Assembly: GCA_030704615.1 (NCBI GenBank)
Contig: CM060734.1
Location: 17,670,001-17,734,000 of the forward strand
DNA from: Takakia lepidozioides
Lineage: Eukaryota > Plantae > Bryophyta
DNA length: 64,000 nucleotides
Direction of reading: 5' to 3'
In this document: positions 1-37,449 of the stretch, one piece after another
How the letters are laid out: each line of letters opens with the position of its first letter
Position numbering within the stretch: position 1 is the stretch's first letter
Translations under genes and position numbers: made by a program
Notes under the pieces: generated by a model
What the model was told of the DNA's origin: nothing
What the model saw: the letters and a program-made list of their open reading frames with translations, nothing else
Databases searched by the model: none

Positions 1-14
1 CCTTTGAGCGCGCC

Positions 15-538
15 ATGGTGACACCTGGAGTTGTCTTGTTAGACAACCAGGATGGCATTTTCTCTTTGAGTGGACCGGCAGGCAAGAAGTACCGGCCACT
101 GCGGGTCTTGTTGGACTCAGGAGCTCAGCCACTGATGTTGGGCAGAGCTGCTATTGCAGGTTTGGGCCTCATGGAGGCGGATATGGAGCCTTGTCCTTTC
201 CAGATACAGACATCTCTGGGAGGATCAGAGCAGCTCGGGGCATGACACGGCATCAGTTGGCCATTAGACTGCAGCCGGATCATCCTATCGATGGCTCAGT
301 AATGCGAGCCAAGGCCATTGTGACAGACGCGGTCTCTTACGATGTCCTCGTTGGTGGGGCAGTGTTATACCCCATGGGCTTCACCCTGGACTTCTGGGAG
401 GAGTCAGCATTCTACAGGCCTGGATGGCAGTCAGGGGATGGTCGCCGTGCACAGCTCCCTGTGACATTCATTGGGGGTATTGCAGCTGCCCAGCGGGGCA
501 AGATGCCAACACTAGCCTGCCTTCACAGCTGCAGTTAG
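15..538 (+). pseudogene. Retroviral-type aspartic protease region, frameshifted
   Basis: RVLLDSGAQPLM active-site motif and YDVLVG flap-side motif split over ORFs 15..245 and 191..538; continuous in copy 2. Confidence 0.85.
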
Positions 539-551
539 TTGGCCTGGAGAG

Positions 552-1870
552 TTGCTGGAAGGCAATGCCCATGCAGAGGATGTGCCACCTCCAGCAGAGC
601 AGGATGACATGCATGGTACGGTGGAGTTGCCTGCCATGGTTGCTCACACTCCATTGTGGGGTACGAGCAAGGATTTGCAGCAAGCTGCTGATAGACGGGT
701 GCAACAAGCTTGGGTAGAAGCTTTTGTACCGTCAGGAGAGGAGGAGAGTGCGGTGATTGCACCAGGGAAACCTCAGTTGTCGCCATTGGACACCACACCT
801 CTTGTGTGGCAGCGGCCGGATGAAGGCATATGCCTTCTGGACTTATTTGGCGGGATCAGCACTGGATTGGCTGCAGTGCTGCAGGCAGGTGTACGAGTTC
901 GACGTTACCTGTATGTGGAGAGGGATGAGACTGCACGACGCGTCTCACTGCGCCATGTTGCTCAGATGCTGCAGCAGTACCCTGAGTTGTTGCCGGTGTC
1001 TGCAGTTCGTGGATATCAGCAGGCCTTGCCAGCAGACATTGCGTTGCTGGGGGCGCAGGATTTGGAGCGGGTTGGCTCCATTGATCTGGTAGTGGCAGGT
1101 TGGCCCTGCCAAGGGCATTCATCAGCCGGGCATGGCAATGGATTGCGAGACTCGAGGACGGGTCTGTTTTGGGAGATGGTGCGGATTTTGCGCCACTTGC
1201 AGCTTCATCAAGCTGTATCTCCAGCATACATCTTGGAGAATGTGCCACTGATGGGTGATTCTCGGGCCAGGGTGATGGCCAGTGTGCATCAAGTCCGGTC
1301 GTGGCTTGGGTCAGCAGTGCTGCTGGATGCAGCTGCAGTGGGATCACGGGCTCATCGTCCACGGCTATGGTGGACTAACTTGATGCCACCCGCACTGCTC
1401 AAGCGTGCATTTGATGGGGTGCAGCGGCCAGCACACCTCATAGTGGGAGCATTTTGGACACAGGGAGGCAGTCTCAACGTGTGAGACACGATGACCGTTC
1501 GCCTTTGGCAGTGGTCAACAGGGTGGGTCAACCACGAGCAGCATTACCTACACTGCTCAGCTTCCCAGGATCCCATGCTTTTCGGGATGGTGGACCTGGC
1601 CTCCTGTGGGATGCTCAGTTGCAGCAGTTAGTGGAGCCTAATGCCGACGAGCGAGAGCGGGCTATGGGGTTTTCCACTGGGACCACGGCGGTGCCTTCTC
1701 TTTCTGAGGCATCACGGCGTCAGGTGTTGGGGCAAGCAATGGATCTCAATTGCTTGACCTGGATTATCAGCTTGGCTATGGCTGAGCAACGTAGAGTGCG
1801 GAGTGCACTCCCTTCATGGTCTCTCTGCCTACCGAGACGGTACAGGCAGCGAGTGGGGGCGAGCCGGTGA
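552..1870 (+). CDS. DNMT3-like C5-cytosine methyltransferase domain of the retrotransposon polyprotein (one 1-nt frameshift near 1447)
   Basis: Motif I LLDLFGGISTG (~831), IV IDLVVAGWPCQGHS (~1098), VI ILENV (~1236), VIII AHRPRLWWTNL (~1353), IX ERERAMGF, X RQVLGQAM, in non-permuted order. Confidence 0.92.
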
Positions 1871-2219
1871 GGACCACGGGGTGTAGACATCCATGGCACA
1901 CGTGGGAGGTGCTCGAGGTTCAGAGGGAGTTGGCAGCCAAGGCAGCTGTGATGGATGTTCTCGGGATGAGGAGGTTCTCAATGATGAGATGATGGGGCAG
2001 GATGAGGCCTTGTCATTGACTGAGCAGGAAGGGAGTACTGCTCAAGAGGTTGCAGCATAGCAACCACGGGACGCGTCCTCTACCTCTAAGCCCACTGGAC
2101 TTAAGGTTGCAGTTACGGAGGACAATTGGGAGCCTGACATTGGACCCATTGTCACCGGAGGAGAGAGACGACGTATACGGCGGTTCCTGAGGGCTTACAG
2201 GAATTGCTTTGCCTTCAGT

Positions 2220-4502
2220 TTGAAGGACTTGGGAGCACTGAAGGGTCAAGAGATCCGTATTGAGTTGGCCACTGACACGCCAATCTTTCGGAGACCCTAT
2301 AGATACAGTGACATGGAGAGGTCTTTGATTCAGATGAGGACTCAAGATCTCTGGGAGGCAGGTTTGGTGGAGCTCTCTGGTGGAGAGTATGCTTCAGCCA
2401 CAGTGATGCCAGCCAAGAAGGATGTCTATGGCAATTGGACGGAGAGACGTATGTGCGGTGATTACCGGCCTGTAAATCGTCAGACCAAGTCCGATAGGTA
2501 TGCCATGCCGACACCAGAGGAGATCTTTGATGCCATTGGGCATTCCAAGGTCTTTAGCACGTTGGATTTACGATCCGGATATCACCAGTTGCCGATCAAG
2601 GAGGCGGATAAGCAAAAGACGGCATTCTGGGGGATCAATGAGCACGGGAAGGATTGCCTATACCAGTGGCGGTTCTTACCATTTGGGCTTAAAAACGCTC
2701 CCGCTGAGTTTCAAAGAGTCATGGACAGGATTCTAGCAGGGGTGGAGTTTGCTCGGTGCTACATAGATGACATCATCATCTTTAGTGCTACGGTGGAGGA
2801 GCATGAGAGACACCTTCAGGGGGTATTTGAGCGCTTGAGGACGCACGGATTGAAGTTACATCCGGGCAAGTGCAAGTTTTTCCACAACCAGATTGAGTAT
2901 CTGGGTCACATGATATATCCTGGAGGATTGGGGGTACAGCAGACTAAGGTAGAGTCCATTGCACAGGTTCCACGCCCCACGGATGTGAGCCGAGTTCGAG
3001 CTTTCATGGGGTTAGCAAACTATTACAGACGGTTTGTTAAGGGATTTAGTGCCATTGCAAAGGCTCTAACCAAGCTGACCAAGGTGGACCAGGAGTGGCA
3101 GTGGGAAGATGAGCAAGAACAAGCTTTTCAAGAGCTCAAGGCGAGGTTGACCTCGGCGCCCATCTTGAGACGACCTATCAGGGGGCGTCCTTTTCAGCTG
3201 CATACAGATTGGAGCATGCTGGGGCTTGGAGCGGTGCTCACACAGGTGGATGATGAGGGAAGAGAGTTCGTAGTGGCTTATGCTAGCCGCTCGAACAATG
3301 CTGCAGAGTCTAAGTATAGCTCATATGAGGGAGAATGCTTAGCTGCAGTGTGGGCCGTGGCACACTTCAGGTGCTATCTATACGGCAATCTCTTCACCCT
3401 TGTCACGGATCACCAACCACTCAAGTGGTTGATGGAGTCAGACAAGCTTACGGGGAAGCTTGCACGGTGGGCACTCATCCTTCAAGAGTATGACTTTCAG
3501 GTGGTGCATCGACCGGGTTTGGTCAATCGCAATGCAGATGGGTTGAGTCGCAATCCATGCACGAGCCAACAGGATGACACTGGAGCTCGGTGGCATGGTG
3601 AGACGGACGAGGAGATGGTGCCCGGATGGCATGCATCTGCATTTCTGTGTATCTTGGCAGCGGAAGGCCAGGTTGGACCTGCAACAGGGATGACTGTAGA
3701 TCAAGTGTCTGAGGACCCTGAGGCCAGCAATGAGCAAGGTGGCGCCAAAGATATACATGAGGATTCAGTTGTGTTGGACTACCTCCGCACTGGAGACACG
3801 GCAGCCACTGTGACTGCCAAGGAGAGGGATCGGATCCTACAACGAGCCAAGAGGTTCAGGTGGGAGGGGACACACCTGCTCCGAGTGTGGGAGGATGGTC
3901 GAGTGAGGATTGTGCCTCACCCAACACAGCGGGCACGGTTAGTGCGGCATGCCCATGAGGAGTTGGGGCATTTTGGGGTGCGACGCACTCATAGTCTACT
4001 GCAGGGGCAGTATTGGTGGCGTGGTATGCACACAGAGGTGCAACAATTTGTGGCTAGGTGCATGGTGTGTGACAGGGTGCGTGCTTCATTCAACGCCCCT
4101 ACTCCACAATTGCACCCTCTTCCGATCATGGGATTGGGCTACAGGTGGAGTCTTGACTTCGCAGGGCCGTTGCCACTGACCATGCGCCACAACAAGTACG
4201 TGTTGGTGATGGTGGAGCACTTCTCCAAGTGGATTGAATTGGTTCCATTGCCTGATAAGGCTAGTGAGGGAGCTGCGTATGCATTCCTGGATTGTGTGCT
4301 TAGCCGATTCGGTGCTCCAGCTGAGGTACTCACGGACCAAGGGAGAGAGTTCTTGGGGGAGTTTCAGGCTTTGTGTGACAAGGCCTTGATAGACCACCGC
4401 ACCACTTCTCGGGATCATCCTAAGGCCGATGGCTTGGCAGAGAGAGTTGTTCAGACAGTAAAGAGGGGTTTGCGCAAGTATGGCTTGCAGAGGGACACCT
4501 AG
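2220..4502 (+). CDS. pol: reverse transcriptase, RNase H, integrase (HHCC and DDE core)
   Basis: [32 protein letters not shown]; RNase H LHTDWS...TDHQPL; integrase HEELGH...CMVC, SLDFAGP, LTDQGREF, GLAER. Confidence 0.96.
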   Translation: MKDLGALKGQEIRIELATDTPIFRRPYRYSDMERSLIQMRTQDLWEAGLVELSGGEYASATVMPAKKDVYGNWTERRMCGDYRPVNRQTKSDRYAMPTPEEIFDAIGHSKVFSTLDLRSGYHQLPIKEADKQKTAFWGINEHGKDCLYQWRFLPFGLKNAPAEFQRVMDRILAGVEFARCYIDDIIIFSATVEEHERHLQGVFERLRTHGLKLHPGKCKFFHNQIEYLGHMIYPGGLGVQQTKVESIAQVPRPTDVSRVRAFMGLANYYRRFVKGFSAIAKALTKLTKVDQEWQWEDEQEQAFQELKARLTSAPILRRPIRGRPFQLHTDWSMLGLGAVLTQVDDEGREFVVAYASRSNNAAESKYSSYEGECLAAVWAVAHFRCYLYGNLFTLVTDHQPLKWLMESDKLTGKLARWALILQEYDFQVVHRPGLVNRNADGLSRNPCTSQQDDTGARWHGETDEEMVPGWHASAFLCILAAEGQVGPATGMTVDQVSEDPEASNEQGGAKDIHEDSVVLDYLRTGDTAATVTAKERDRILQRAKRFRWEGTHLLRVWEDGRVRIVPHPTQRARLVRHAHEELGHFGVRRTHSLLQGQYWWRGMHTEVQQFVARCMVCDRVRASFNAPTPQLHPLPIMGLGYRWSLDFAGPLPLTMRHNKYVLVMVEHFSKWIELVPLPDKASEGAAYAFLDCVLSRFGAPAEVLTDQGREFLGEFQALCDKALIDHRTTSRDHPKADGLAERVVQTVKRGLRKYGLQRDT

Positions 4503-4534
4503 GAGATTGGGACCTTCAGTTACCCTGGTTAGCC

Positions 4535-5194
4535 ATGGGCTACAGGTTCAGCAAGCAAGCATCACTTGCCTCCTTCTCACCATACTTTCTTCTCTTTGGC
4601 CGAGAGCCGGATTTGCCTACATCCATTCGCAGAGAAGCTGCTACAATTCTTAACCTTGACGATCCGGACGTGTGGGCACGTGCATGTGAGCAGCGTGCAA
4701 AGTTGTTCAAGAGAGTCATGCCCATGGCTTTCGAGAACCTTGCCATTGCACAACACCGTGATACGTTGAGGTATGCTACCATACGTGGTGGGGGCTATCG
4801 TCCTGGGGTTCGGAGATTCAACCCTGGTGACTATGTCTATCTGCAGCAGACTGCCCCTACGACCCTGGATGTGACTGCAGGACGTGTTATTTTGAGGGTT
4901 CGAGAGGTCTTGCCTTCAGGCGTCTTGGTCTTGGAGGGTCGGGATGGCATAACTTGGAAGGACCATGTGCGTAATTGTGCGCCATGTCACCTTCCGAATG
5001 TCGATGGCAGGATTGACCCCAACCTGGCAGTGGTATCTGCAGGTTTGAGGTGCATGTTGTGTGGGTCTGCTAAAGGGGCAGCCACCATGCTGGTGTGTGA
5101 TCGATGCTCTAGAGGTTGGCATATGGGATGCTTGACTCCACCTCTTGAGATGGTTCCAGATGGGGATTGGTTATGTCCACATTGCATTGGATAG
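4535..5194 (+). CDS. Integrase C-terminus ending in a PHD finger (PHD about 5051-5186)
   Basis: SPYFLLFGREP integrase tail, then C4HC3 pattern CMLC-x10-CDRC-x4-H-x2-C...WLCPHC. Confidence 0.92.
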   Translation: MGYRFSKQASLASFSPYFLLFGREPDLPTSIRREAATILNLDDPDVWARACEQRAKLFKRVMPMAFENLAIAQHRDTLRYATIRGGGYRPGVRRFNPGDYVYLQQTAPTTLDVTAGRVILRVREVLPSGVLVLEGRDGITWKDHVRNCAPCHLPNVDGRIDPNLAVVSAGLRCMLCGSAKGAATMLVCDRCSRGWHMGCLTPPLEMVPDGDWLCPHCIG

Positions 5195-5443
5195 TGGGAG
5201 TGGATATAACCATGGAAGGCTAACAAGAAACGCAAGGCCCAGCTACTAGGAGACCTTGAACACACGAGATCCTGGCTCAAGTTCACAGATTGCAAGACGG
5301 CGACTAACGATGGGGCTACTCTTGTACCCGGCCTCTTGGTCTATAGAGTTTGAGTACAATAGGGACAGTGATAGAGGACTTAGTACGGTTGTGGCTATTT
5401 CATCTTGTAGCTATCTGGAGGTAGAGGGACCTATCCACCAGCT

Positions 5444-5520
5444 AGGGGGGCGATTGTGGCAGACTACTTTATTGTGCATATATGTGTGGTGTGGTTTGGA
5501 CAGCGATGTAGTTGTGTAGC
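5444..5520 (+). promoter_or_regulatory. Polypurine tract (AGGGGGG, 5444-5450) and probable start of a truncated 3' LTR (TGTGGCAG at 5455)
   Basis: Purine run 4 nt before TG, downstream of pol; TGTGGCAG is an imperfect inverted match to CCGCAACA upstream of gag in copy 2 (32715-32722). Confidence 0.6.
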
Positions 5521-6323
5521 GATATGTATGCGCACGACAACTTCCAAACTTTGCCAACACGTTCCAGACACCCTCTCACAGGTCCCGGACTAATATCAGA
5601 TCAATCGAAAATTCATTCGATGGCTCAACGGATGGTTGGCCATCGAAATGATTTTGGTTCGCTTTGAGACTTGGCCACTATGTTCAATGTGCCATGTAAG
5701 AGGCCCCAGAGTAATATGAGATCAATCGAAATTCGTTCAATGGGCCAACGGATGGTTGCCCATCCAAATGATTTTCGTTCGCTTTCAAACCTTGGCCAGT
5801 GTGTTCAATGTACCCTCTGATACGTCCCAGTGTAATACGAGACCAATCGAAAATCGTTCCATTGTCCAATGAGGCGTTCACTTGTCATCTGGTTTTTGTT
5901 CAATGCGAAAAAAGAAATCCTGCAATGCGTGCACGGCTATTGCACCCATTGAACGGTTGTGGTTGAAGCCCCTCTTTTGCCCGCACGTGCTTGAACATGT
6001 GCGCGACACATGTACGGAGACACAACAGACGAATAAATCATTTGCCTCCATGGAGGTAGTATGTAACTATTCTCATGCAGATAGTTTCAGCTTGGTTTTG
6101 CAACTACCTTCATGTAGAAAATCCTAAAACTACCTGCATGGAGGTAGTTGTAAATTTCATATGCCAAAAAAATTCGAAGTCCTCGACCATGAAGGTAGTT
6201 TGCTCCTATATTAATGAGACGGCGGGCCCCATCGTGACCAGCCTTACGACGAGAAGGCCACACAAATTCTGAGCCCTTCCATGGCACCTACTTTTGGCGC
6301 GAACTTCTTGGTCCAAACCAGTG
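5521..6323. mobile_element. End of a CACTA-type element (terminus CACTG on minus strand) with subterminal repeats
   Basis: Ends ...GGTCCAAACCAGTG at 6323; repeated ATGGAGGTAGT/ACTACCT motifs 6050-6200. Confidence 0.5.
5583..5865. repeat. Tandem repeat of about 120 bp, about 2.3 copies
   Basis: TAATAT.AGATCAATCGAAA...CAACGGATGGTTG.CCATC.AAATGATTTT.GTTCGCTTT...TTGGCCA recurs at ~5591, ~5712 and ~5833. Confidence 0.8.
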
Positions 6324-7131
6324 TTGGTATGGTATCAGGGTTTCGCCGGGTATTAACCCAGGTCTCTCCTAACCTAACCTACTGTTCTCTAGCCTGACAC
6401 AGCCTTACACAGTCCGACACAGCCCAACACAACCAGTCACAGCCCAACACAGCCAGTCACAGCCCGACACAGTTTGGCACAGCCCATCACAGCATTCACA
6501 GGGAACGGTTTTTAGCGGCAGGGAACGACTGTGTGGGAATGACATTTGCAGAGGGAACGTGCATTCTGTCTGGATGACAGTTAGTTAGTTAGGCAGTTAA
6601 AACAACTTGCAAGTAGAATAGGCAAAGTAGCAACAGGGAGAGACACACTTCTTGGGGATCACAACTTGGTCATCGGGGAGGAGAAGGACGATCTGGAGCT
6701 GAGGGATGGAGAGCACAATGGAGGAGGAGAAACAAACTGTTGATGCTTGATTCATGCAAGCTATAGAGTTGTACTGTAGAGCAGATTAGAGACACCATGG
6801 CTTCGGCCTGATACTTGATAGATATTAATCTGATACATATTTCATGCTCACACTGTGTAGAGAGACCTAAGTGAAGCTGTGGAATGAATGGACAAGTGAT
6901 TGGAACCTGGTAGATTGCTGAAGCAATCTGATACTTAAACATAGACGGTAAGGTAACTTGCTAGTATGAATGTGAGAAGGAATACAAATAGGAAGTACCC
7001 CCATGATACACTAGCTGTAGGTCATGACTGATTGTTCTGAGCGGGCTAAGTGCTTAGAGATGTCCAACTCTTCTATCTTGGAGTTTCCACCTCGGATAGC
7101 GAAGGGATGGGTGAGTAAAAGCCGCTTGACA
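6324..7131 (+). mobile_element. 5'-truncated LTR (LTR-A) of the Athila-like family, no PBS after it
   Basis: Collinear with 9450-10208; last ~120 nt nearly identical; ends TGACA. Confidence 0.85.
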
Positions 7132-9313: not shown

Positions 9314-10208
9314 TGTTAGAGGGCTGCTTGGGACTTAAACGCTTTTACGGGTTCTGTGGGGTACCCTTAATTTTTGCACAGACTTACGGATGGTAGACTG
9401 AGACCAACATGAGCCTTAGGGATGGCAGGCGCAGGCTTTAGGGGGGGATAGACAGCCCGACACAGCCCAACACAGTCTATCACAGCTTCGCACAGCCAGT
9501 TACAGCCCGACATAGCTTTACACAGCCAGTCACAGCTCAACACAGTCACAGCTCGGCACAGCTTGACACAACCTGTCACAGCGTACATGGGGAACAATTA
9601 TCATTAACAGGGAACGACTATGTGGGAACGACATCTGCAGAGGGAACGTGTTACTTCAGGGGTGACAGTTAGTTAGTTAGGTGGTTAGAACAGCTTGCGG
9701 GTAGATTAGGCAGGGTGGCAACAGGAAGGGGATCACTTCTTGAGGAGCGCGACTTGGTCAGGGGAGGAGGAGACGAAACGGAGAGCGGAAACAGTGAAGA
9801 TGAGATAATGACTTGATTGAGGCTTAATTCATGCAAGCTGTAGAATCATACAGTAGGGTAGATTAGGGACACCATGGCATAGGCGTGATACTTGATTAAT
9901 CTTAATCTGATACTTATTCGATATAAACATATTGTGTAGAGAGACATGAGAGAAGCTGTGGAATGAATGCATGACTGATTGGAACTTGGTAGATACTGAA
10001 GCAATCTGATGCTTCAGTATACACAGTAAGATAATTGATAACATGAAGGCAAGAAGGAATACAAATAGGAAGCACAACCATCATTCACTAGCTGTAGGTC
10101 ATGACTGATTGTTCTGAGCGGGCTGAGTGCTTAGAGATATCCAACTCTTCTATCTTGGAGTTTCCACCTCGGATAACGAAGGGATGGGTGAGTAAAAGCC
10201 GCTCGACA
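9314..10208 (+). repeat. 5' LTR (LTR-B), TG...CA, contains a 10-bp CACAGC minisatellite
   Basis: Starts TGTTAGAGG, ends CTCGACA directly before the PBS; homologous to LTR-A. Confidence 0.82.
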
Positions 10209-11648: not shown

Positions 11649-13834
11649 ATGGTGTTACAACCAACACGGGCAAAACCACCTTTTCCAATATATTCAGGAA
11701 AAGAGGATCCTGATGTACACATTATCCAATTTGAGCACATGTGTATTGTGAACAATGAGAATGACGATGATGCCAAGATGAGACTGTTTCCTTGTTCACT
11801 TATAAAGAAAGCAAGTGAATGGTATGCAAGATTCCCTGATAATCATTTCCTAACCTGGAATGGCTTAAATACAACATTCCGAAATAGGTTCAGGACAAGT
11901 AAAACTGAGGATGAAGTGTATGGAAGTTTACGACAGTTAAGCAAAAGAAACATGAAACTGTTGAGGAGTATATGGAAAAGATGGAATTGATGATGAAAAA
12001 GTTGGCTGCTGTACCAGCGCCAAGATTACAGAAAACTTGGTTTGTGAGTGGGCTAAGACCAGAATTGCAAAAGAAAGTGGATATGCTACCCCATAATACG
12101 GTGGAGGAGGCATTTGAAACAGCTAACAGAATTGAGCAATTGGGAATGCTCAGGAGAGAGAAAAGGGATGATGAGGACTCTGAGGATGAGTCAGATGAGG
12201 AAGAAGAGCAAGAGCTCAAGTGGAAGAGTAAGAGGAAGGAAAAGTTGAAGAGGGATAACTATGAGAAAAGATTGGAAGAAATTTTAAAGAAGTATGCCAC
12301 AGAGGCTGCAACACATTGGAGGAAGGGTGTTTGGTGTGCAAAATGCCAGAATGAAGGCCATACCACAGCTGAATGCCACATGAAGGAGAAACACTGTACT
12401 ATCTGTAAAATGGATAACCATTCTACTGAGAATTGTTACTACAACAGAAGAACAGCTGCAAGAGAACCTAGGCAAGTAAGGGTGCATCAAGTGCAGCCCC
12501 AGCCAAGAAGAAACAGTGAACAGGACCACTATGGAAGGCTTGGTGGTTATGACAATGGTATCGAAGGGAGAGGTAATCCAAGAGGGAATTACCAAGGCAA
12601 TCCTAGAGGCAACTATCAGGGTAATCCAAGGGGGAATTACCAGCCAGGGAATCAGGATTATAGAAACAATCCCAGAACAGACCAAGGGCGAGGACCTAAT
12701 GGGGAAGAACTGTGTTACTATTGTAATCAGGCAGGACATCGTAAGGCAGCCTATCCATTCTGGATCAGACACCAGAATGAGATGAGAGCTCCTATGAATG
12801 AGGGCCTAGTGGTGGCAGCTCACATGGTTAGGCCATGTGTTGTACCAGAAGTAGGTACAATGATAGTAACCAGAAGCAAAGCTAAATTAATACCTCCAGT
12901 AGATGAGGAAGGTGATGATAATGAAGATGGCAGTGATGTGCCTGAAGATGATGAGGCTTGGAGAGATGAGAATGAACTGCATAAGGAAGTGGCAGATACC
13001 ATAAGGAAAATGCAGAAGAGTACTGATATCCCTATGGCAGATTCTTCTGATTCTGGAAGAGAAGATGAAGAGAGTGAGGATGAAGGAAAGAAAGAAGCTG
13101 CAGAAGTGCAGAGTAATGAAGGGACTTTGGCTGAAGTAATATGCCAATCCAAAGCGGAGATTACCATTGGACAACTATTGGCTATGGCACCTCATTGTAG
13201 GCACAGGCTGTATCAAGCAATTAATCAGATTGCTCATGTGACAGGGAACACAGACCTGAACAGCAAGGTGACAAGCTATACTGTGAAGCCGGAAGGGCAA
13301 GAAACAGTCATGGACTTTGATGATTCTATGCCAGTAATCCAATTGAGAATTAGAAGCACAGAATTGACTGATGTACTGATAGATGGAGGCTCTGGAGTGA
13401 ATGTCATAACAGACCAATTAAGGCAGAGGCTTGGTTTAAGTAACATGAAACCAGCCCCATTCACAGTAACAATGGCAGATCAAAGAAGTGTTCAGCCATT
13501 GGGTTTGATAAGAGGAGTTAAGATACAGATTCAAAAGATGATCTTTAAGATCACAGTGACTGTGTTGAAAATGGATGATGTCATAGAAGCTTACTCCTTA
13601 TTGCTGGGTCGACCATGGCTGAAACAGGCCAAGGTATTCCATGACTGGAATTCCCAGTTACTAACTGTGCATGATGGGAAGCACAAGATACAAATCACCA
13701 CAAAGAAATCTAGTAGACTACCTGCTATGAAAAGACCTCGGGGAGTCAGAGAGTATGACTGGAGGAGAGGACTTGATGAGGAGCAGGAAGCTACCCTGTT
13801 CGCTGCACACCCGAAGTGGGAGCAGGTTGCATAA
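11649..13834 (+). pseudogene. gag and protease of the Athila-like element (frameshift near 11945)
   Basis: FPIYSGKEDPDVHI...LFPCSL...ASEWY capsid motif; zinc knuckles CAKCQNEGHTTAEC, CTICKMDNHSTENC, CYYCNQAGH; protease VLIDGGSGVN and LLLGRPWL. Confidence 0.92.
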
Positions 13835-16800
13835 ATGCAACTGGAGGGCCTAAGTTGTTTAAAAGGTATCTGTTGTGGTGTAGTGACAACAACACCAATT
13901 GAGGGTGAAACAAGTAGTTACCCACCATATTTCTATGAAGAAAGAGAGCGAGAAATGGAAATCCTGGAAGAACCAGCTACTGTGAGTTTACATGATGAAG
14001 TAGTGACTGGTTGGACAATCACAGCTGATGAGCAGGTGAGAGAAGTGAATGTGGGAACTGAGGAGGAACCGAGAATGGTGAAAGTAGGGGCTGACTTGGA
14101 GCCAGAATTCTTTGAGGAAGCTAAGAGTCTGTTCATCAAATACAGAGATATATTTGCTTGGAGCTACGAGGATCTGAAAGGGATACCCCTTGAGATCTGA
14201 CAACATAAGATTGAACTGGAACCAGGGTCAGTACCAATAAAACAGGCAAGGTATAGAATGAATCCCAACTATGCACAGAAGGTTGGGGAAGAGATCAAGA
14301 AGTTGGCTGAGGCTAAGTTTATATACCCGATAGAGTATACAACTTGGTTGTCACCCATTGTGATAGTTCCCAAGAAGAATGGTAAACTGAGAGTTTGTGT
14401 GAACTATAAGAAGTTGAATGCTTGTACGAAGAAAGATCCTTTCCCTTTGCCATTCACAGAAGCGGTATTGGACACTGTGGCAGGCCATGAGATGTACTCA
14501 TTCATGGATGGCTTCACTGGTTATAATCAAGTGCAAGTGGTAGAAGAAGACCAAGGAAAGACAGCTTTCATCATAGACTGGGGTGCTTATGCATACAAAG
14601 TCATGTCTTTTGGACTTTGTAATGCACCAGCAACCTTTCAAAGAGTGATAAGTGAATCTTTCCATGAGTATCTGGATGATTTCATGCAGGTGTTCTTAGA
14701 TGATTTCAGTGTGTACAGCTCTAAGAGTGAGCACTTGCATAAACTGGAGTTATGTTTGGCCAGATGCAGGATGAGAGGTCTTGGCCTGAATCCAGAGAAG
14801 TGTACTTTCTGTATGAACTCAGGGGTACTTTTGGGACACATAACGTGTAAGATGGGACTTCTTGTGGATCCCAGAAAAATAGAGGCCATTAAAGTCTCTC
14901 CACCAGTAAATGTTAAGAGTCTAGGGAGATTCTTTGGACAAACCAGTTATTACAGAAGATTTGTCAGACGGTATGCACAGATAGCAGCACCATTGAGCAA
15001 GCTTCTGAAGAAAGATGCAGTGTTTGTATGGACAGCTGAATGTCAAAGGCTTTTGAGGAGCTTACATTGTCAGTAACAACTACACCTGTACTGATTAACC
15101 CCCACTGGCATGTAGTGTTTCATGTTCACTGTGATGCCTCAGGAGAAGCATTGGGAGCAGTATTAGCCCAAAATGTTACAGGAAACATAGATTCACCTGT
15201 GTATTATGCTAGCAGGTTGATGAACAGTGCTGAAATGAACTATAGCACAACTGAAAGAGAAGCACTGGCAATGATTTATGCAGTCAAGAAATTCAGACAT
15301 TACCTATTGGGAAGGAAGTTTATGTTTTATGTGGATCATCAGGCTCTGATATATCTGGTGAACAAACCTTTGATAAGTGGAAGGATAGCAAGGTGGTTAA
15401 TAATCTTGCACGAGTTTGAGTTCGAGGTTGTTTACAAGCCTGGTTGTCTGCATCTTGTGGCAGATCACTTGGCTTTACCTTACACTATGGTAGGGGACAG
15501 AATGTATAAGCTAGGACCTGATGGAGTACTTAAACGATGCTTATACCACCATGAAGTAAATAAAGTTTTGGAAGAAGTTCATAAAAGAGTGGCTGGAGGT
15601 CATTTTGGAGAAGAGACTACCAGTAGAAAGATCCTACTTGCAGGGTACTGGTGGCCTACTTTGTTCAAGGATGTACACAAGTATTGTAAGAGTTGTGATG
15701 AGTGTCAGAGGCTAGGACCATTGCAGAGATCTGGAAAGATGGCTTTGCATCCTACGATGCCTACTAAACCATTTCAGAAATGGGGACTAGACTTTGTTGG
15801 ACCAATTAACCCGCCAGCCAGAAATACACAGAACAAATACATAATCACAACCACTGATTATACTACAAAGTGGGTGGAAGCTAAAGCTCTGAGGGACAAC
15901 ACAGCTAAGTCCACAGCAAGGTTCTTATATGAGAACATACTTACAAGATTTGGCTGCCCCCTGGAATTTATCAGTGACCAGGGAAATCACTTCATTAATG
16001 AGACCATAGAATTATTGACTAAAGAGTTCATGATTGCGCATAGAAAAAGTACAACCTATTACCCACAGGGTAATGGGCAGGCAGAAGCCACCAACAAAAT
16101 ACTATGTACTATCTTGGCTAAGATAGTCAATGCGAACAGAACAAATTGGGATACAAAGCTGCTAACAGCTTTGTGGTCATACATGACTTCATATAAAGTC
16201 ACCACTAAGTATACACCATTCCAGTTAGTTTATGGTATGGAAGCTTTACTTCCAGTGGAATTCTTGTTACCTACTATGAGAACTGAATGGGGAAGGAGAA
16301 TGAAATTGGAAGATTCGATTAAAGTCAGGAAACATGAATTATACCATGTGGAGGAAGTACGTGCTGATGCAGCAGATAACATGACCAGAATTCAGATGAA
16401 GAGAAAGGATCAGTTTGATGAAGGTAAATTAAAGACTTTTAAGACGGGAGTTTTGGTACTGTGGTTGCAGAAGAAGGGGAAGATCAAAGCTTCTAAGCTT
16501 AAATCACCATGGAAAGGACTTAATGTCATACAGAAGATGTATGATAATAACACCGCCATGTTACAAACCATTAACAAAGAAATACTGGGAAGAGTCAATG
16601 CCAATAAGTTGAAGGGATACAGTGGTATCCATGACAAACCATTGCAGCACCATTTGCATGTTGAAACACAAAAACAGTCATGGGCTGCGCCGGTGCTACC
16701 AATGGAGTATGGAGCACTTGTCATTAAGCCGAGCGTGTATGACCAGGGCGGGAAGTACAGGTGTTCGTATAGCTATCACAGCCCATCACTGTGTCACACA

Positions 16801-17022
16801 ACCTATCACAGTTCACCACAGTCTGACACAACCTGTCACAGCCCAAGACAGTCCATGCGGGTTACACAGTCCATAGGGTCAGTGACAGGTGGACGCGGGT
16901 TAACGCCAGAAAAGTGGCCGTCAAGTGAAAGAGAAGTTTGGAAGTCAAACTCGGAGAATGTGCCACGCGGACAGGGGAAGTCGGAGGCATGTCTAAAAAC
17001 GAATACGTGGCCACTAGGGTGA
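13835..17022 (+). pseudogene. pol (RT, RNase H, integrase) of the Athila-like element, disrupted
   Basis: KKDPFPLPF, MDGFTGYNQ, FLDD; HCDASGEALGAVL; GGHFG...CDEC, WGLDFVGP, ISDQGNHF, NGQAE; stops at 13832 and 14198, deletion near 15470. Confidence 0.95.
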
Positions 17023-20296: not shown

Positions 20297-23010
20297 TCAT
20301 GAGCTGTCCCATGCATTTGGACTGCAGTTGAACATGAGCCTGTCCGGCATGACCCCTTCTGGTATCAGTTGTTCATAGATCTCAAGAGCTTCCCTATCAC
20401 AATCACACTGAGCATGCCCTGTAATCATGGCGTTCCAGTAAACCGCACCATGTTGCACCATATCGTCAACTTGACAAACAGCCACAATGCTTCCTACCCC
20501 TTCCAGTATCAACTGTTCACAGGTCTCAGGAGCCTCCCTACCACACCCATACTGAACATACGCTGCAGCCGTAGCGTTCCAAGAGAACATATTTTGTTCA
20601 GCCATCATGTAAAAGTCTGGACGGGCAGTGCTTACAATCCCACACTTTGCATACATATTAGTGAGGATAGACTCCAGATTAACATCTGATGCACTTACAA
20701 CGTCGATAATGTCATTGTGGGCCTCTTTGCCCTTTGTTGTGGCTATCAGTCTGGCACAGTCATTGAGAACGCAAACAAATATGACTTTGTTGTGTGTCAC
20801 TCCTTGTATTGTGTGCACGTAAATCTCTAAGGCCTCCCTCCCAAACCCATGCTTGAAACATGCTGCCACCATTATAGTCCAGGTAAACACATCCCGGTCA
20901 GGCATTTTGTCAAGCGCTTGGCGAGCACCCACCATGCTGCCGCGTATGTCACACTTGGCATACATGTTGACAGGGGTTTGTCTCTCTGCCTCTAGTATAG
21001 TCTGCTGCTGTTTCTGCTGCAGCTCTCTCTCTCTTTCATTACAATTCCAGCTCTGACGAGGTCGCCATGGACTTCTTTGTCCTTTACCCGAACTGCCAGG
21101 GCAGTGTTCAGAATGACATTTGGTACAGCTCCAGCTTGGATGATGGCAGCAAGCCCACCTCTTGCATACTTACATGTCCACCAGGGTATTGTTCAGAGTG
21201 ACAGTTGGTACAATTCCAGTTTTGAAGGTGTCGCCCTGGGCCTCGTTGCCCTTTTCCAGATCTGCCAGGGCAGTGTGCAGAATGGCATTTGGTACAGCTA
21301 CAGCAAAAAAATTTGCATACATGTTTACCAGGGTATTGTTCAGAATAACAGTTGGTACACTTCCAGCTCTGAGGAAGTCGCCATGGACCTCATTGCCCAC
21401 TTCCAGTTCTGCCAGGGCTGTGTGCAGAATGACATTTAGTACAGCTACATCAGAACCTTCGAGCATCACATTCCACGACACCATATCTCGTTCAGTCATA
21501 GTGTCAAACACTATCTTTGCATCCTTGATGCTTCCCAGTGTTTTTTTTTTGGGCGAAAAATCGCCAAATGGCAACCTCAAAACATTAAAATGGAATATTT
21601 TGTCATAAATTCCTTGTTTTTTTCATGGATGAAATCGCCAAACTTCTACAAAGAAAAAACAATATGGATGAATTTGCCAAATATGGATGATATAAATGGA
21701 TGAAAGTACATATGAGGACGATTCTATCCAAATTTTCAATGGATGAACATAATATATAGCTATTTCTTGTAGCCACTCGTGCTATTTTTCAAATTTAAGA
21801 AAAAAATCACTGATGCTTCCACATTTTGCATACGTGTCCACCAGGGTATTATTCAGAATGACAGTGGGTACAATTCCAGCTCTGAAGATGTCGCCATGAA
21901 TCTCCTTGCCCTTTTCCAGATCTGCCAGGGCAGTGTGTAGAGTGACATTTGGTACAACTGCAGTAGAATCTTCAAGCATCGCATTCCACAATACCGTATC
22001 TCGTTCTGCCATAGCGTCAAACACACCCTTTGCATCCTCAATGCACCCGCATTTTGCATGCATGTCCGCCAAGGTATTGTTCAGGAGGGCAGTTGGTACA
22101 ATTCCAGCTCTGGAGATGTCGCCATGGACCACTATGCCCTTTGCCAGATCTGCCAGGGTAGTGTGCATAATGGCATTGTAAACAACTACAGCTTTGATGA
22201 TGTAATCAGGTACATCTTTGCGCTTTCCCGTGGCAGCTAGGCTCTTGTGGTGTGTCGGGGAGCTGTGGATGATGAGCAGAACTGAGTGAAACAGAGACGA
22301 ATTGAGGCATAGAGGCAGAGAACCTTGTGTGTGCTTGAGCAAGTAAAAGAAGGGTGTGGGATTTTTGCACCTTGTGGGATAATATCCGTGTCTAGGTAGA
22401 TATAACCTGCAGGAAGCATGCTGTCGTGATACAGCAGCGTGCAAGGATGTGGTCTGGCAGAGCTTGATGGACAGGCTGGGTGAAGAGCTGGCTGTATTGC
22501 ACCCGCTCCAGTCGGCGCTACCACCACCTTCGATTTTAGGATACAGATCATGCCACGGTTCCCTGGGGCCTTCTCTCACTGCTCCAAACCCCGCATGGGC
22601 CATACTCCCACACTTCCCGTACCTGCGGAAGGGGGCGTTTTCCATGGTGACACCGGACTTGTTGGAGACGAGTGAATGTCCAGGGTTGCTACTGGAGGAG
22701 GGGTGGCGTACAACATTGAAGCACCTGCAACTGCAACATTTTCTGTGAGGGTCACTGTGCCATCTAACGCACTGTCCATGATTGGGCTGGGTGGAGTTTT
22801 TGTGAAGCCAATAGCCCGCACCTGGTTGGAAGTTCGTGCTGCTATCTGTTTTCAGATAGTCGCTGCTCGTTGTAGCGACGTTTTGTGCAGGCATGGAGCT
22901 CAGGCCCCTTTGCCACATGGCATACATGTCCACGGGGGTGTTGAGTAGATACACATGTAGCTTGAATTCGCTTCTTGTGATATGGGCAAGCACCTGCTTC
23001 CCCTCTGTCG
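20297..23010 (-). pseudogene. Degenerate PLS-class pentatricopeptide repeat (PPR) gene fragments
   Basis: MYAKC...ARQALDKMPDRDVFTWTIMV...GREALEIY; NNTLVDTYAKCGSI; DAKGVFDAMAERDTVLWNAML; motifs truncated, duplicated and mixed with unrelated sequence. Confidence 0.85.
21536..21812. mobile_element. hAT-type MITE, 277 bp
   Basis: TIRs CAGTGTTTTTTT / AAAAAAATCACTG; perfect 8-bp TSD ATGCTTCC at 21528-21535 and 21813-21820. Confidence 0.92.
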
Positions 23011-23948
23011 ACGGATTGGCTCGTTGAGAGGCTGGGTATGGGGCAGCGACCCTTACAATCGCTTTAACAAGAATCACGATTTGTTGTGCTACCTTGACCA
23101 GCACTGGTCGAGCAGCCTCCGGATCTGAGGGTGGTGCCATACGTTGAGAGGGGAAAACACGGGGGGGAGAGGGGTAGCTCACGTATTGATGTAGCTGCCG
23201 CTGAGAAGAATGGGGAAGGTGTGTGCCTGCATTAGTGTTGAACTGATTCGAAGAGCAGCACTGGGGGCAGCCGTCATCGGATGTTGCCATTCAACACGAG
23301 CCTCATACCCGCTCTTGGTTGGCTGGAACAGAGTGGCCGGTGGAGTCCGTTGCGCCGGGGGTCCCGTGCATAGCTCCAGCCTTCGCACACACATGGTGTG
23401 GTGCAATGTAGGGATAGACTCATCCGTGAAAAAGCGCACTGGGGTTGATATGTTTAATCTTGCGCTGGTCAGTTCGGGACTCCAGGGGTGGGGGCTGGCT
23501 TGGGCAGCAGTGAGAAGTAGCAAACTGAGCAACACCTGTAGAGATAAAGAGATGGAATGAGAGATCTGCATCCTGTTGAGGGTACCAAGTACCTTGTAGT
23601 GGTGATTAGTCAGTAGAGTCGGCTCTAAAAAGATCAATAGAGAGCTTAAAAGATGCGCAAGGGGACGGGTGTAAGAGGTAATGATAGAACGAGAGATGAA
23701 ACGACGCAAGCGTCTTGTAAAGGCACCATGGGCAAGCGCAGGAGCTACGGCGGCGATCATGGCTAACTGTAGAGAGTCGGACAAAGTAGCGGCACTGCTA
23801 AACAGGAGAACTGAGAAGACGAGAAGATTAAAAATTTGGCGGAACCCTATATGGTTAGTCATAGCTAAAAACGTTACTAAGACACAGCCAAGATCATGGC
23901 GGGAGGGTGGAGCGCCGCTCCGCCCCTATCCTCACTCCAACTCTGACA

Positions 23949-25900
23949 TTTTGAATACGAAAAAACTCTGCAGGATTCATTACTTTTACACACAACCTCC
24001 TACATACTCGCAAAATTGTAGTGCGAACACCTCTAGCCGTGAGCCCACGAATAGCCAGCGGTAAAATTTGGTGCATGGACACATGGTAATCATGTGATTT
24101 CATGCCAGATAGTTTTTTCTTTACCACGTGTTTTTTGAAAGCTGATGCGTATCCTGTGGGTACTTTAAGGTTTCGCACAATGTCCAAGAAAACTTTCAAC
24201 TCAGCTTCAGTCAGAACATAAGGAGTAGGAGGCATCATTAACGTATCTGCACTGTTCGGATGTCGTTGCAACCACAATGATGGACGCAGCCCAAGTAATT
24301 CAAGATCACGCCGAACCTTCAATGTATCTTTCTCCCCAAAAATTGTCCTAATGATATTCTCTGCAAATTTCTTCTCGCAATGCATAACATCAAACGTATG
24401 CCGTATGAGGAGGCCCTCCCAGTAAGGCAAGGCATATAAGATTGATAATCGCTTCACTCCGTGAGATTTGGAAGGGTCTGATGGCATATTTGGTTTCCCC
24501 CCCTGCTGCTATCCATGCAATCAGGTCAATTGCACGTTTCTTTATTTGTGTTCCCGTCTGCGTTTGTGGAGCCACTCTATGCTCAACAACACCATTGAAC
24601 AATCTTGATCTTCTATACGGATGGTTGTGGGCAAGAAATCTCCGATGGCCCAGGAACACAGTCTTCGAACATGCATGTAAATGTTGTGAATCCACCTCAA
24701 GTCCATTTGGTAACCTGACCCGCGAGCAAGCCATATGCAGGGTAATCATGGATTGACCATAGCAGCAATGCCCGTAGCAAGAATTGGCGTTGTTGGAGAG
24801 CGTGGGAAACATCATAAGCTATGATGCCTCTCCACAATTCCTGTAGCTCCTCTACTAGGGGCATCAAATACACATCAATGTTCGCAGATGTAACAGACTC
24901 CTTTCTAGGGATAAGGAGTGATAACATGACGAAAAACTTCTTTGTCGTTAACCATGGAGGCAAATTATAGTTGACCAACAGGATGGGCCATGTGCTCTAA
25001 CTCGTGGATTGAGCACCGTATGGATTTACTCCGTCTAAGGCTAATCCAAATCATACATTTTGTGGTTCTAAAGCAAAATCTGCAAATGTGGAGTCAACGT
25101 GGGCCCAGGCTTTGCTATCAGCTGGATTTCGAACCAATCCATCCTGACTCTTTATGTCTGAAGTGCCATGTCATAAGGTGCGCGATAGATTTGCATCGAT
25201 ACATGTGTTTCAACCTTGGGATGACAGGGACATGTCGTAGTATTTTTCTTGGTACAGTCCCACGACCAAGAATGTAACGCGACGTCTTGCACTTTGGGCA
25301 AAAATCTGCTTTTTCATTCTTCCCACAGAAGAGTACACAGCCTTTCTCGCAGGCATGGATATTCTGGGTGTACTGCAATCCCATCTTCACAATCATAGTT
25401 CTAGCTTCATAATTAGTTTTCGGAAGATAATTCTGTTTTGGCAAAAAACTTTTGAGTAACAATCCAAGAAGCTCATCCACAAAGCCATTGATGCACTTGT
25501 GGGTGGTGCACAAGTTGAGCAAGTGCAAAGTAGCTTCAAATCGGATGATCGAGCTCCCTTTATAGAGTTTACACTAAGATTGTTGAAATAGAGTATCATA
25601 GTTGGGGTCAACTCCGTGACTCAGATTTGGGCCATTCTCTGCATTCTCTACATTGTCCATGGATCCTTCGTCGTTGGGGCTGTCTTCGGCCCGAGTTCCA
25701 CCATTAATGGGATCCTCTCTGTTTGCATCTGCAAACTCAAAAGCTTCCTGCAATGCTTGTTGAATTTCTGCCTCCACACCACCTTCATGATCCGTATTGT
25801 TCTCCCTTTGATTAGGCACCTGCCCAAACTCAGCCCGATCCTCCTCGTCATCAGAATCAACATGTCCCTGCATCCCGTGTTTCCCACGCTTCATTCACAG
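23949..25900 (-). pseudogene. CACTA/EnSpm TnpD (Tnp2) transposase, decayed and 3'-truncated
   Basis: IHACEKGCVLF...CPKCKTSRY, IPRLKHMY, NYNLPPW...MLSLLIP, IHDYPAY, FLGHRRFL, DVMHCEK, GMKSHDYHV. Confidence 0.93.
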
Positions 25901-31459: not shown

Positions 31460-32040
31460 GGGCTGTGACGGGCTGTGCCCATGGCCTTTGGGGCTGTGAT
31501 GGGCTGTGAGGGGCTGTGACAGGCCGTGCCTGAGGCCTTTGAGGCTGTGAGGGGCTGTGAGGGGCTGTGACAGGCTGTGCCCATGGCCTTTGGGGTTGTG
31601 ATGGGCTGTGAGGGGCTGTGACAGGCCGTGCCTGAGGCCTTTGAGGTTGTGACGGGCTGTGCCCATGGCCTTTGGGGCTGTGATGGGCTGTGAGGGGCTG
31701 TGACAGGCCGTGCCTGAGGCCTTTGAGGCTGTGACGGGCTGTGAGGGGCTATGACAGGCTGTGCCCATGGCCTTTGGGGCTGTGACAGGCTGTGCCCATG
31801 GCCTTTGGGGCTGTGATGGGCTAAGAGGGGCTGTGACAGGCCGTGCCTGAGGCCTTTGAGGTTGTGACGAGCTGTGAGGGGCTGTGACAGGCCGTGCCTG
31901 AGGCCTTTGGGGCTGTGACGGGCTGTGAGGGGCTGTGACAGGCTGTGTGGGGCTGTGACGGGCTGTGGCGAGCTGTGACGGGCTATGAGGGGCTGTGACA
32001 GGCTGTGCCCAGTGGCCTGTGGGACTGTGACGGCTGTGAC
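31460..32040. repeat. Minisatellite of 10-bp units (GGCTGTGA core) with higher-order CCCATGGCCTTT / CCTGAGGCCTTT blocks
   Basis: Directly visible tandem array; repetitive translations in ORFs 31376..31768 and 31399..32145. Confidence 0.93.
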
Positions 32041-32777
32041 CAGTGAGCTGTGTGGGCCTGTGCTGGTCTGTGGTGGCCCGTGTTGACCTGTGGACGGCCT
32101 ATGCTGACTCGTGGAGGCACTGGTGGACTGCCTAAGAACTGGCATGTGGTCTGGAAGGCCGAATTTTTAAGCTCGTGGAGGGCGGTTTGAGGAGTATCTT
32201 CATGATATTCCCATGGTCATGCAAGTGAGGGAAGAGAGGAGAGGAAGAGTGTTGGGATGAGGGCATGCTGGGGTTAGGCATTGCTTTAGCTTCTCTTCCT
32301 CGTAGTTTCCACCCTCTCATTAGGCCAAGACCTTTCCGTAGGTGGAGGCAAGAGTCAGTCCGGGTTTGGGCTGGGGTGTCCTTGCAGGAGCAACACCGTG
32401 GAGTTGTTTTTGGTGTGGGGGAGTTGTCGTTCTGATTTCTTGTGTTTGGATCCCCTCCATACCTGCATGCTTGACTGTGCGCCATGCTAGTTTTGTGTGG
32501 GCGCTTGTTTTTATAGGTGATTGGTCCGGATTTGATCACCGGCCAGTCCTAGAGCATGCTGTCGATGGTGAGGTTGGGGTGATGACCAGCCAGACCATCA
32601 TTGTTTCTCCTGTGGTGAGGTTGGAGGTGATGACCAGCCAACCATAGGAGTGCTTGCGGTGGATGCAGATACAGGTGTAGGCTATGTTAGGAACTTAGTA
32701 TTCCAAACCATAAGCCGCAACAGGTTCTCTACCCGGTTACCTTGTGGAGAGGGGGTTAGGGACATGTTCATGACCGG

Positions 32778-36811: not shown

Positions 36812-37449
36812 AATTCGATTAATGTCATACTCGTCCGAGACCTGTAAACATCTTCTGCAGTCAAGTCTCCTAGCATACAGTCTAAGAATTGCAGAAGAAA
36901 AATGAGGCAGGTTTCGTTGCTCGATCAGCTGGCGAATCCCGATAGCACGAAGCTCTCACTGGTGGCTGGGTTGCCTACGTGGCCTGATGCTGCGAGATGG
37001 CAATCTCCTCATGTAGACGCATCTGCTTCCTCCCCTTCGGCATTGGCCTACGTCCGAAGTATAATTTTCGGAGCTTGCAACGATGTCTCTTCTCTGGTGC
37101 ACGCACTCCCTCCCTCTCAGGTTCGAGCATAAGAAGAAAAGAGACAGGGAAAAGGGGTGAAGAGTGCAGATGGAAAGGGCGCGAGAGGGGTGACTGAGGA
37201 GACACGACAAAAGCAGATGAAACGGCGGTGATGCAGCACTTGGGTTCGAAAGGGTTGGAGGAAAGTGTCTCCTCGTGGACTTTGCGTCATTACGAAATTC
37301 GAATCATTCAGGATACGCCTGCCGTCCGAAAAACAAACATCATTATCCAACGGTCAGGCCGCGCCGCCTCATGCCACTTCAGTCAGATAGAGTGCAGACA
37401 TGTGCCGCAATTCCGTTGCTCCACGTGTTCAAATTTGGAGTTGGAGTGA

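Follow-up and report, generated by a model that had tools for sequence, protein, structure and literature searches.

A Ty3/Gypsy element with a DNMT3-like methyltransferase and a PHD finger in the moss Takakia lepidozioides, and its place in a lineage of green algae and bryophytes

Introduction

Methylation of the cDNA has been proposed for KnitGypsy-Dnmt3, a methyltransferase-bearing retrotransposon of Klebsormidium nitens (de Mendoza et al., 2018, PMC5890265). The reason why retrotransposons carry cytosine methyltransferases has been an open question since 2018, partly because the hosts (dinoflagellates and Klebsormidium) are hard to work with. Here we describe a Ty3/Gypsy element that encodes a DNMT3-like C5 cytosine methyltransferase (DNMT) and a PHD finger, and which is located in a stretch of 64,000 nucleotides (nt) of the Takakia lepidozioides genome (assembly GCA_030704615.1, contig CM060734.1, positions 17,670,001 to 17,734,000), referred to below as the window. 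Judging from its sequence, it is an element of the KnitGypsy-Dnmt3 kind, related to it by descent, and this kind was already known.

With KnitGypsy-Dnmt3 the window's lineage shares the Gypsy domain set, a non-permuted Dnmt3-like domain, purifying selection and DIRS-like split repeats in the order A-coding-B-A-B (PMC5890265). In KnitGypsy-Dnmt3, the DNMT lies in the Pol open reading frame (ORF) together with the reverse transcriptase (RT) and RNase H, and the element was reported as an acquisition of the K. nitens lineage (PMC5890265), whereas the lineage described here reaches land plants and chlorophytes, has a conserved stop codon after the DNMT, and is proposed to self-prime and to integrate from a circle. 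The words "PHD" and "Marchantia" do not occur in the main text of PMC5890265. The K. nitens proteins GAQ93235 (protease-DNMT) and KFL_013780010 (RT), whose neighbouring gene numbers lie on a contig of 7497 bp, belong to the same clades as the window element; GAQ93235 is assumed here to be one of the copies studied in PMC5890265. Another K. nitens member of the lineage, GAQ89454, ends in a PHD finger. "Streptophytes (Gypsy-DNMT3)" are mentioned in bioRxiv 10.64898/2026.05.21.726589 and the streptophyte Gypsy-DNMT3 elements are also referred to in PMC12344493.

Several other systems show partial similarities. The EpiLTRs and DAM-LTRs are likewise elements with long terminal repeats (LTRs) that combine DNA methyltransferases with a chromatin reader; they carry a DNMT4-related enzyme, DAM and a chromodomain, whereas the window's lineage carries DNMT3 and PHD (bioRxiv 10.64898/2026.05.21.726589). 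PHD fingers were already known in retrotransposons (PMC9940879; PMC6673714; 10.1101/2021.11.30.470311): Gypsy-7a_cRei and REM1 of Chlamydomonas are Gypsy elements with a PHD finger, two ORFs, an LTR in subparts and an intergenic insertion bias (PMC9940879). In that source, Gypsy-7a_cRei has no methyltransferase listed. Among the Ty3 lineages of non-seed plants in REXdb, Phygy and Selgy also have 4-bp target duplications and Tcn1 is predicted to self-prime (PMC6317226). The targets of Phygy are NCGN, its primer is tRNA-Trp and it carries no extra domain; Selgy has a tRNA-Ala primer and a length of about 5 kb, and Tcn1 is a chromovirus (PMC6317226), whereas the lineage studied here has a DNMT and a PHD finger, AAGG and CACA duplications, and no tRNA-type primer site in the copies inspected. 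Membership of Phygy or Selgy was rejected on these features (primer site, extra domain and, for Phygy, target).

In the openly licensed literature, that is, apart from subscription journals and Repbase, neither the members in bryophytes nor the putative readthrough and self-priming sites nor the proposed circle route were found described, and the same applies to the span of the lineage (Marchantia, Calypogeia, Riccia, Sphagnum, Closterium, Mesostigma and chlorophytes); the figures and supplements of later papers may include land plants. Nothing on the window's lineage was seen in passages of PMC11982613, PMC11244446, PMC12885004 and PMC6453930.

Domain organization of the two copies

Window positions 1-5539 (+ strand) correspond to a Ty3/Gypsy element, copy 1, with the domain order protease, DNMT3-like domain, RT, RNase H, integrase and PHD finger (Table 1). 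The order protease (PR), RT, RNase H (RH) and integrase (INT), with an integrase of the DDE type, is that of Ty3/Gypsy elements. The Pfam matches all exceed the curated cut-offs (DNA_methylase PF00145, 2.3e-13; RVT_1, 1.4e-32; RT_RNaseH, 5.2e-36; Integrase_H2C2, 2e-16; rve, 5e-14; PHD, 5e-11). No Pfam protease match was obtained in the window, and the protease was recognized from its DSG motif and from Asp_protease matches in the same region of relatives, above the cut-off in P0241 and P0255 and below it in P0151. The methyltransferase motifs occur at 843-854 (LFGG), 1098-1112 (GWPCQ), 1236-1244 (ENV), 1350-1382 (AHRPRLWWTNL), 1649-1672 (ERERAMGF) and 1727-1744 (LGQAMD), in a linear, non-permuted order. 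These matches and positions agree with the sequence-only reading made earlier, which had placed the C5 methyltransferase motifs between protease and RT, had seen a PHD finger at the tip of the integrase, and had named profile searches for DNA_methylase, PHD, rve and RVT_1 as a check. The span of 1-5194 that it had given contains these domains, but not the whole element, which continues to 5539, has its gag upstream of window base 1 and is interrupted by five frame breaks.

These breaks lie near 232, 518, 1447 (inside the DNMT), 1808 and 4490 (in the interval between integrase core and PHD finger), and are attributed to decay of this particular copy, since many sequencing-run contigs and the overlapping part of copy 2 do not have them. 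Copy 2 is truncated and spans approximately 29699-36813, with 92% identity to copy 1 over 1943 nt; it has a frame break in gag, a stop at 36494 and an Arg-to-Cys substitution in motif VIII. The sequencing depth at the DNMT bins resembles that at the RT and integrase bins in runs X1 and X5, relative depth being a measure that gives no copy number.

The methyltransferase domain

The DNMT matches DNMT3A best among PDB entries when searched as a single sequence (E 6e-10), and a 26-sequence profile ranks DNMT3A (4e-28) and DNMT3B (1e-25) above DRM2 (3e-14), HhaI (3e-10) and DNMT2 (2e-6), with DRM2 aligning to only part of the profile. The structure model of the copy 2 domain has a predicted local distance difference test score (pLDDT) of 92.5, and the fold matches listed are DNMT3A/B/C in 34 cases out of 34. 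By sequence and modelled fold, the enzyme is thus DNMT3-like, as the sequence-only reading had also concluded from the motifs and their order. Identity with the DRM family was rejected: the permuted order of that family (VI-X before I-V) is absent, the motifs being linear, and DRM2 ranks below DNMT3A. A search of viral contigs with the DNMT gave weak phage-type methyltransferases only (30/30 at E 7e-14 or weaker), and a search of the ESM Atlas gave viral C5-methylase clusters only.

The catalytic cysteine is present in all 171 classified relatives, and the motif VI Glu and the first motif VIII Arg in 169 each, while the residues that bind S-adenosylmethionine (SAM) are nearly invariant; this tally covers the classified relatives, 34 unclassified and seven outgroup rows having been set aside. 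The ratio dN/dS, which the sequence-only reading had suggested as a check, is well below 1: between the window copies it is 0.23 in the DNMT and 0.21 in the protease, and between subfamilies it is 0.09-0.20 in the DNMT (pairs with unsaturated dS). Among recent copies within subfamilies it ranges from 0.12 to 0.54, two subfamilies giving 0.41-0.54, where the RT gives 0.12-0.38. The methyltransferase is under purifying selection.

Distribution and phylogeny of the lineage

The closest named relatives of the window element are liverwort elements, its RT region matching those of Calypogeia and Riccia at 77%. The streptophyte relatives named are those of Marchantia polymorpha, Calypogeia fissa, Sphagnum fallax, Riccia sorocarpa, K. 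nitens, Closterium and Mesostigma, along with one from Coleochaete that comes from a transcriptome and may be contamination. The chlorophyte relatives are from Scenedesmus, Monoraphidium, Tetrabaena, Haematococcus and Tetraselmis (the genus being taken from the record tag). No members from vascular plants were found among the matches listed. A large subfamily of metagenome loci (including L033 and L067) matches an S. fallax gene model at 69%, a value that does not establish "Sphagnum" as a label for it.

An RT-based search gave 120 proteins, 74 of which were assigned to the lineage by their integrase tail. The DNMT is present in 69 of these 74, before the RT in 19 and after RNase H in 50, and the PHD finger in 64; absence from most family members, which the sequence-only reading had named as a refutation, was not observed. 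Most of the chlorophyte members have the DNMT between RNase H and integrase. In the RT-RH tree (74 rows), the 57 rows of the lineage group together in one clade with a Shimodaira-Hasegawa-like approximate likelihood ratio test (SH-aLRT) value of 100. This includes a 28-row clade (SH-aLRT 95) uniting the window element with those of Klebsormidium, Closterium, Coleochaete, Marchantia and Calypogeia, while the members with the DNMT after RNase H form a 20-row clade (SH-aLRT 100); FastTree runs on 138/174 sequences agree. Since both RT and DNMT group with elements of Klebsormidium, Closterium and Mesostigma, the precedent that the sequence-only reading had named from Klebsormidium (KnitGypsy-Dnmt3, PMC5890265) was apt, and its suggestion of a separate land-plant family was not upheld. 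The order with the DNMT before the RT is likely to be ancestral, because it is also that of Tetraselmis. The identity of the feature, a DNMT3-carrying Ty3 element, and its placement in this lineage are very probable. From the sequences, the lineage may be a single old one that extends across the green plants, with horizontal spread as the alternative. The element was also compared with chromoviruses, from which it differs in that its integrase ends in a PHD finger, not a chromodomain, and its RT lies apart from the chromovirus rows of the tree.

Among the members with the DNMT after RNase H, a second SAM-methyltransferase-like domain follows the PHD finger in 55/84 (for example at residues 1690-1881 of P0035). 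It matches viral class I SAM methyltransferase clusters of the Atlas at 0.95, and has a TSPWF-type motif reminiscent of amino-methyltransferases; an element combining DNMT3, PHD and this second methyltransferase would be distinct from the described EpiLTRs. P0048 (1417 residues), in which an RT is followed by a DNMT, has precomputed Pfam matches to DNA_methylase and to PF05869, which we take to be the Dam family, and is possibly a DIRS-type element with two methyltransferases. The lineage members P0494 and P0298 are filed under bacterial names (uncultured Synechococcales and Minisyncoccia), and probably represent DNA of plants or algae that ended up in metagenome bins.

The conserved stop codon between DNMT and RT

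In copy 1, an in-frame TAG (2058-2060), which lies in the RT frame, separates the DNMT part from the RT and is followed by CAA CCA. UAG-CAR-YYA is the consensus of type I readthrough in tobacco mosaic virus (PMC3542737, PMC3441728); the same six-base context after the amber stop would here set the ratio of Gag-PR-DNMT to RT/integrase. The locus analyses covered 66 metagenome loci and the two window copies, after 14 of 80 loci with weak matches (L097-L110) had been set aside. The stop with this context occurs in the RT frame at 36 of the 37 loci that show both the end of the DNMT and the start of the RT, according to a search pattern permissive at two positions; in the window's species it rests on copy 1. 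This conservation rules out decay as the origin of the stop at 2058. As background, CARYYA follows at most 55 of the 23,546 stops in the same loci. SIRE1 uses a type I readthrough context for an env-like ORF.

The loci form 11 subfamily clusters, in seven of which the RT is in view. Five of the seven fit CARYYA using different codons (CAA CCA or CTA, CAG TTA, CAA TCA), one is one base off, and the largest has CAR-YYC followed by ATG. Over 2340 codons of L072 and 1724 of L074, the reading frame is interrupted only once, in each case by a stop that precedes CAR-YYA. In the databases, many proteins terminate 60-180 residues past the DNMT, and many others start about 60 residues before the RT. The RNA structure 3' of the stop is inconsistent (z from -0.6 to -3.8 in seven loci, -1.1 in the window). 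Both hallmarks of type I readthrough, UAG-CAR-YYA and an in-frame downstream ORF, are present, with the largest subfamily deviating at the last base. The DNMT does not form part of one polyprotein as the sequence-only reading had supposed, because it terminates the Gag-protease ORF before the conserved stop. Since this stop separates Gag-PR-DNMT from RT-integrase-PHD, the DNMT would be produced at the same level as Gag. In view of the sequence context, it is highly likely that Gag-PR-DNMT is the abundant product and RT-integrase-PHD a rare readthrough extension.

Element ends and the inverted pair

The ends of the locus L067 show the order A-coding-B-A-B, with a repeat A of 339 nt and a repeat B of 112 nt. 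This arrangement is complete in L067 and partial in L033, L057 and L080, while copy 1, L041, L045 and L046/L050 terminate at the first B. Two like LTRs at the extreme ends were not seen at these loci; the ends are A...B, and the target duplications lie outside the second B (B2). The purine tract lies directly 5' of B and not of A; B ends in CACGACA and A starts with TGTCA, two bases apart. Duplications of 4 bp (AAGG and CACA) flank A1...B2 in both elements with both ends in view, L067 and L057. Of the three A2|B2 joints, those of L067 and L080 are short and that of L057 contains a primer-site remnant.

Following A1, a stretch of the interior of A recurs in inverted orientation, perfect over 17 nt in the window and 21-22 nt long at 81-95% in L067, L033 and L057; the letters differ and the position is the same. 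In 300 shuffles the longest arm was 13, as compared with the 17 observed, and no tRNA-type primer site was found in the copies inspected. The sequences make it likely that the RNA primes reverse transcription on itself just after repeat A, without any tRNA. A self-primed cDNA would read BA-coding-BA, so that the simplest route would be an end-joined circle integrating at the internal B|A joint; integration of circular cDNA at this joint is slightly favoured by the arrangement of the ends.

The PHD finger

The best PDB matches of the PHD finger are those of CHD4, PHF12, KDM5A/B PHD1, ATXR5 and PHF21A. These PHD fingers mostly bind histone H3 tails unmethylated at K4. By analogy, the finger of the element is predicted, with reasonable confidence, to bind such tails and so to avoid active promoters.

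Proposed mechanism and alternative explanations

The reading that we prefer, with a probability of about 0.6, is that copy 1 is a decayed copy of a Ty3/Gypsy element whose Gag-protease ORF ends in a DNMT3-type enzyme and whose integrase ends in a PHD finger, and that such elements would use a leaky stop, methylate their own cDNA and integrate under guidance of the PHD finger. Its basis is the domain order, the DNMT3 fold, the conserved catalytic residues, the purifying selection and the common lineage with Klebsormidium elements. Ribosomes would in all likelihood mostly stop after Gag-PR-DNMT, a minority reading through UAG-CAR-YYA into RT-RH-INT-PHD, so that each particle would have many methyltransferases and few RTs. 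The 5' end of the RNA would then pair just after repeat A and prime reverse transcription, which is likely to require no tRNA. The ends of the BA-coding-BA cDNA may be joined into a circle, and the integrase may cut the inverted CA/TG joint between B and A, a step given somewhat better than even odds; the inserted copy would have the form A-coding-B-A-B or, where the circle contains one LTR, A-coding-B, and would be flanked by a 4-bp target duplication. With even chances, the DNMT would methylate cytosines of the cDNA, probably in CG, and the new copy would arrive already marked. The PHD finger would fairly probably read H3 tails unmethylated at K4, and active promoters would be avoided.

Several observations weigh against this reading. 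Both window copies are dead. The DNMT is absent from five of the 74 lineage members and is therefore dispensable, and in many algal members DNMT and RT share an ORF and the stop is lacking (P0271, for example), so the stop is not a trait of the whole lineage. In the largest subfamily (28/36 loci), CAR-YYC with an in-frame ATG at +7 fits the consensus less well and permits reinitiation. Of the 11 copies tested, only three have the inverted pair in perfect form at 17 nt, and in the window there is no clear TATA box upstream of it. Cutting of circles at either B|A joint would be expected to leave A-B-A-coding-B copies as well, yet none of the 14 loci whose 5' A is complete (12 insertions) has this form. 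In motif IV, the Pro before the catalytic Cys is replaced, mostly by Glu, in 23/49 and in most of 122 relatives. No CpG depletion was found as a mark of self-methylation, the observed/expected (o/e) ratio being 0.52, whereas two Ty3 copies that lack a DNMT have 0.21 and 0.17 and a third Ty3 element of the window has 0.90. The Klebsormidium KnitGypsy-Dnmt3 enzyme showed no activity in yeast, a result from which its authors drew no conclusion because DNMT3B failed in the same test too (PMC5890265). The trees are quick searches whose rows include neither host DNMT3 nor REXdb references, and in the DNMT tree (element and phage rows) the phage outgroup landed inside the ingroup, so that rooting failed.

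Some of these observations would suit a Gag-linked DNMT whose substrate is not the cDNA but the target site or host chromatin, on which it would act in trans, for example by spreading methylation around insertions or disturbing host silencing. A stop giving far more DNMT than integrase suits such a bulk role, as does the lack of element-specific CpG depletion, and accidental methylation of the host has been raised (PMC5890265). The position of the DNMT in most chlorophyte members, beside the cDNA-handling enzymes, argues against action in trans, which we consider unlikely.

The pol ORF might instead be expressed by reinitiation or splicing, and the A-B-A-B ends might arise by recombination or template switching and not by circle integration. 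The ATG at +7, the lack of A-B-A-coding-B copies and the fact that A-coding-B copies could come from recombination between B1 and B2 after insertion are compatible with this. The ATG is absent in the six other subfamilies, where CARYYA or its one-base decay persists, and the frame is kept across linkers of differing length; the target duplications flank B2, and a transcript primed after A would presumably not carry B2 at its 3' end. On this evidence, such an origin is also improbable.

It is less probable still that the DNMT persists chiefly because it binds DNA or RNA, or methylates RNA, and in this way aids packaging, reverse transcription or circle formation. The inactivity in yeast reported in PMC5890265, the frequent loss of the motif IV Pro and the fusion to Gag in the window's subfamily could be explained in this way. 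Set against them are the invariant catalytic Cys, the nearly invariant SAM-binding, motif VI and motif VIII residues, the far lower rank of DNMT2 as compared with DNMT3, and the fact that the related SymbioDIRS-Dnmt3 enzymes methylate CG in yeast (PMC5890265).

Chance capture of a host DNMT3 fragment, or a nested or misassembled arrangement devoid of function, which the broken state of the window copies might suggest, is refuted by the same domain order in both of these copies, at dozens of loci and in named genomes from Mesostigma to Marchantia, by the dN/dS values and by intact single-frame relatives.

A more inclusive proposal, which we regard as tentative and rather doubtful, is that the Ty3 lineage with DNMT3 and PHD predates the split between chlorophytes and streptophytes, and that its bryophyte members combine amber readthrough, tRNA-free priming, circular self-methylated cDNA and an attachment site inside the LTR. 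If it were true, retrotransposons with a DDE integrase and a DIRS-like circle route, missed by LTR finders, would be present in the Marchantia genome as "hypothetical protein". If there is one old lineage, the view that the capture was specific to Klebsormidium would be superseded. The stop predicts the stoichiometry of the enzymes and the end structure an unusual route of integration, and Marchantia polymorpha, which harbours copies (Mp_4g09160, Mp_8g17980 and Mp_7g09570, among other gene models), would allow tests in a genetic model with methylation mutants. ORFs of the lineage can also inflate the DNMT gene counts of bryophyte and algal genomes.

Coordinates and other content of the window

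Table 1. Positions of the features of copies 1 and 2 in the window.
Feature	Position	Strand	Basis
Aspartic protease region, copy 1; LLDSGA at 108-125; frame break near 232	1-470	+	DSG motif; relatives match Asp_protease_2
DNMT3-like C5 cytosine methyltransferase domain, copy 1; motifs I-X linear; frame break near 1447	828-1783	+	Pfam, PDB profile match, motifs
In-frame amber stop then CAA CCA, fitting UAG-CAR-YYA; predicted readthrough site between Gag-PR-DNMT and RT-RH-INT-PHD	2058-2066	+	Sequence, relatives, consensus (PMC3542737)
RT (YIDD at 2760-2771) and RNase H, copy 1	2259-3557	+	Pfam, motifs
Integrase, copy 1: HHCC finger, DDE core, C-terminal region; frame break near 4490	3873-5020	+	Pfam, motifs
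PHD finger, end of pol ORF, copy 1; stop codon at 5192-5194	5051-5185	+	Pfam, PDB matches
Polypurine-tract-like run, immediately 5' of repeat B	5444-5453	+	Sequence; same position in L033, L041, L045, L067
Repeat B with terminal CACGACA, 3' end of copy 1; repeat A not next here, but next in another contig set	5455-5539	+	Sequencing-run contigs, repeat comparison
Repeat A, LTR-like, TG...CA; putative 5' end of copy 2	29699-30025	+	Repeat comparison; presumed link to gag 3 kb downstream
17-nt perfect inverted pair, 29845-29861 within A and 30025-30041 at the primer-binding position; predicted self-priming site	29845-30041	+	Sequence
Copy 2: gag, two zinc knuckles, protease, DNMT (35699-36655); cut off at 36813	32985-36813	+	Sequence compared with copy 1

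Copy 1 is adjoined by a repeat with a 121-bp period (5580-5869), the depth of which exceeds that of the element in runs X1 and X5. A tandem array (31458-32073) lies within the 3-kb leader of copy 2, and similar units occur on the opposite strand near 6390-6493 and 9452-9582. The two DNMT-less Ty3 copies used in the CpG comparison, at 11915-17022 and 44271-47538 (o/e 0.21 and 0.17, respectively), belong to an element outside the DNMT lineage and are 92% identical over 3270 nt on opposite strands. The third Ty3 element (59624-63470, o/e 0.90) has a C-terminus that looks chromodomain-like by eye. ORFs resembling DNA-transposon proteins, again by eye, are located at 39423-43321, 54440-55060 and 23894-24508. 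Fragments at 20297-23290, recognized by eye and which we take to be pentatricopeptide-repeat-like from their pattern, fit a land-plant host.

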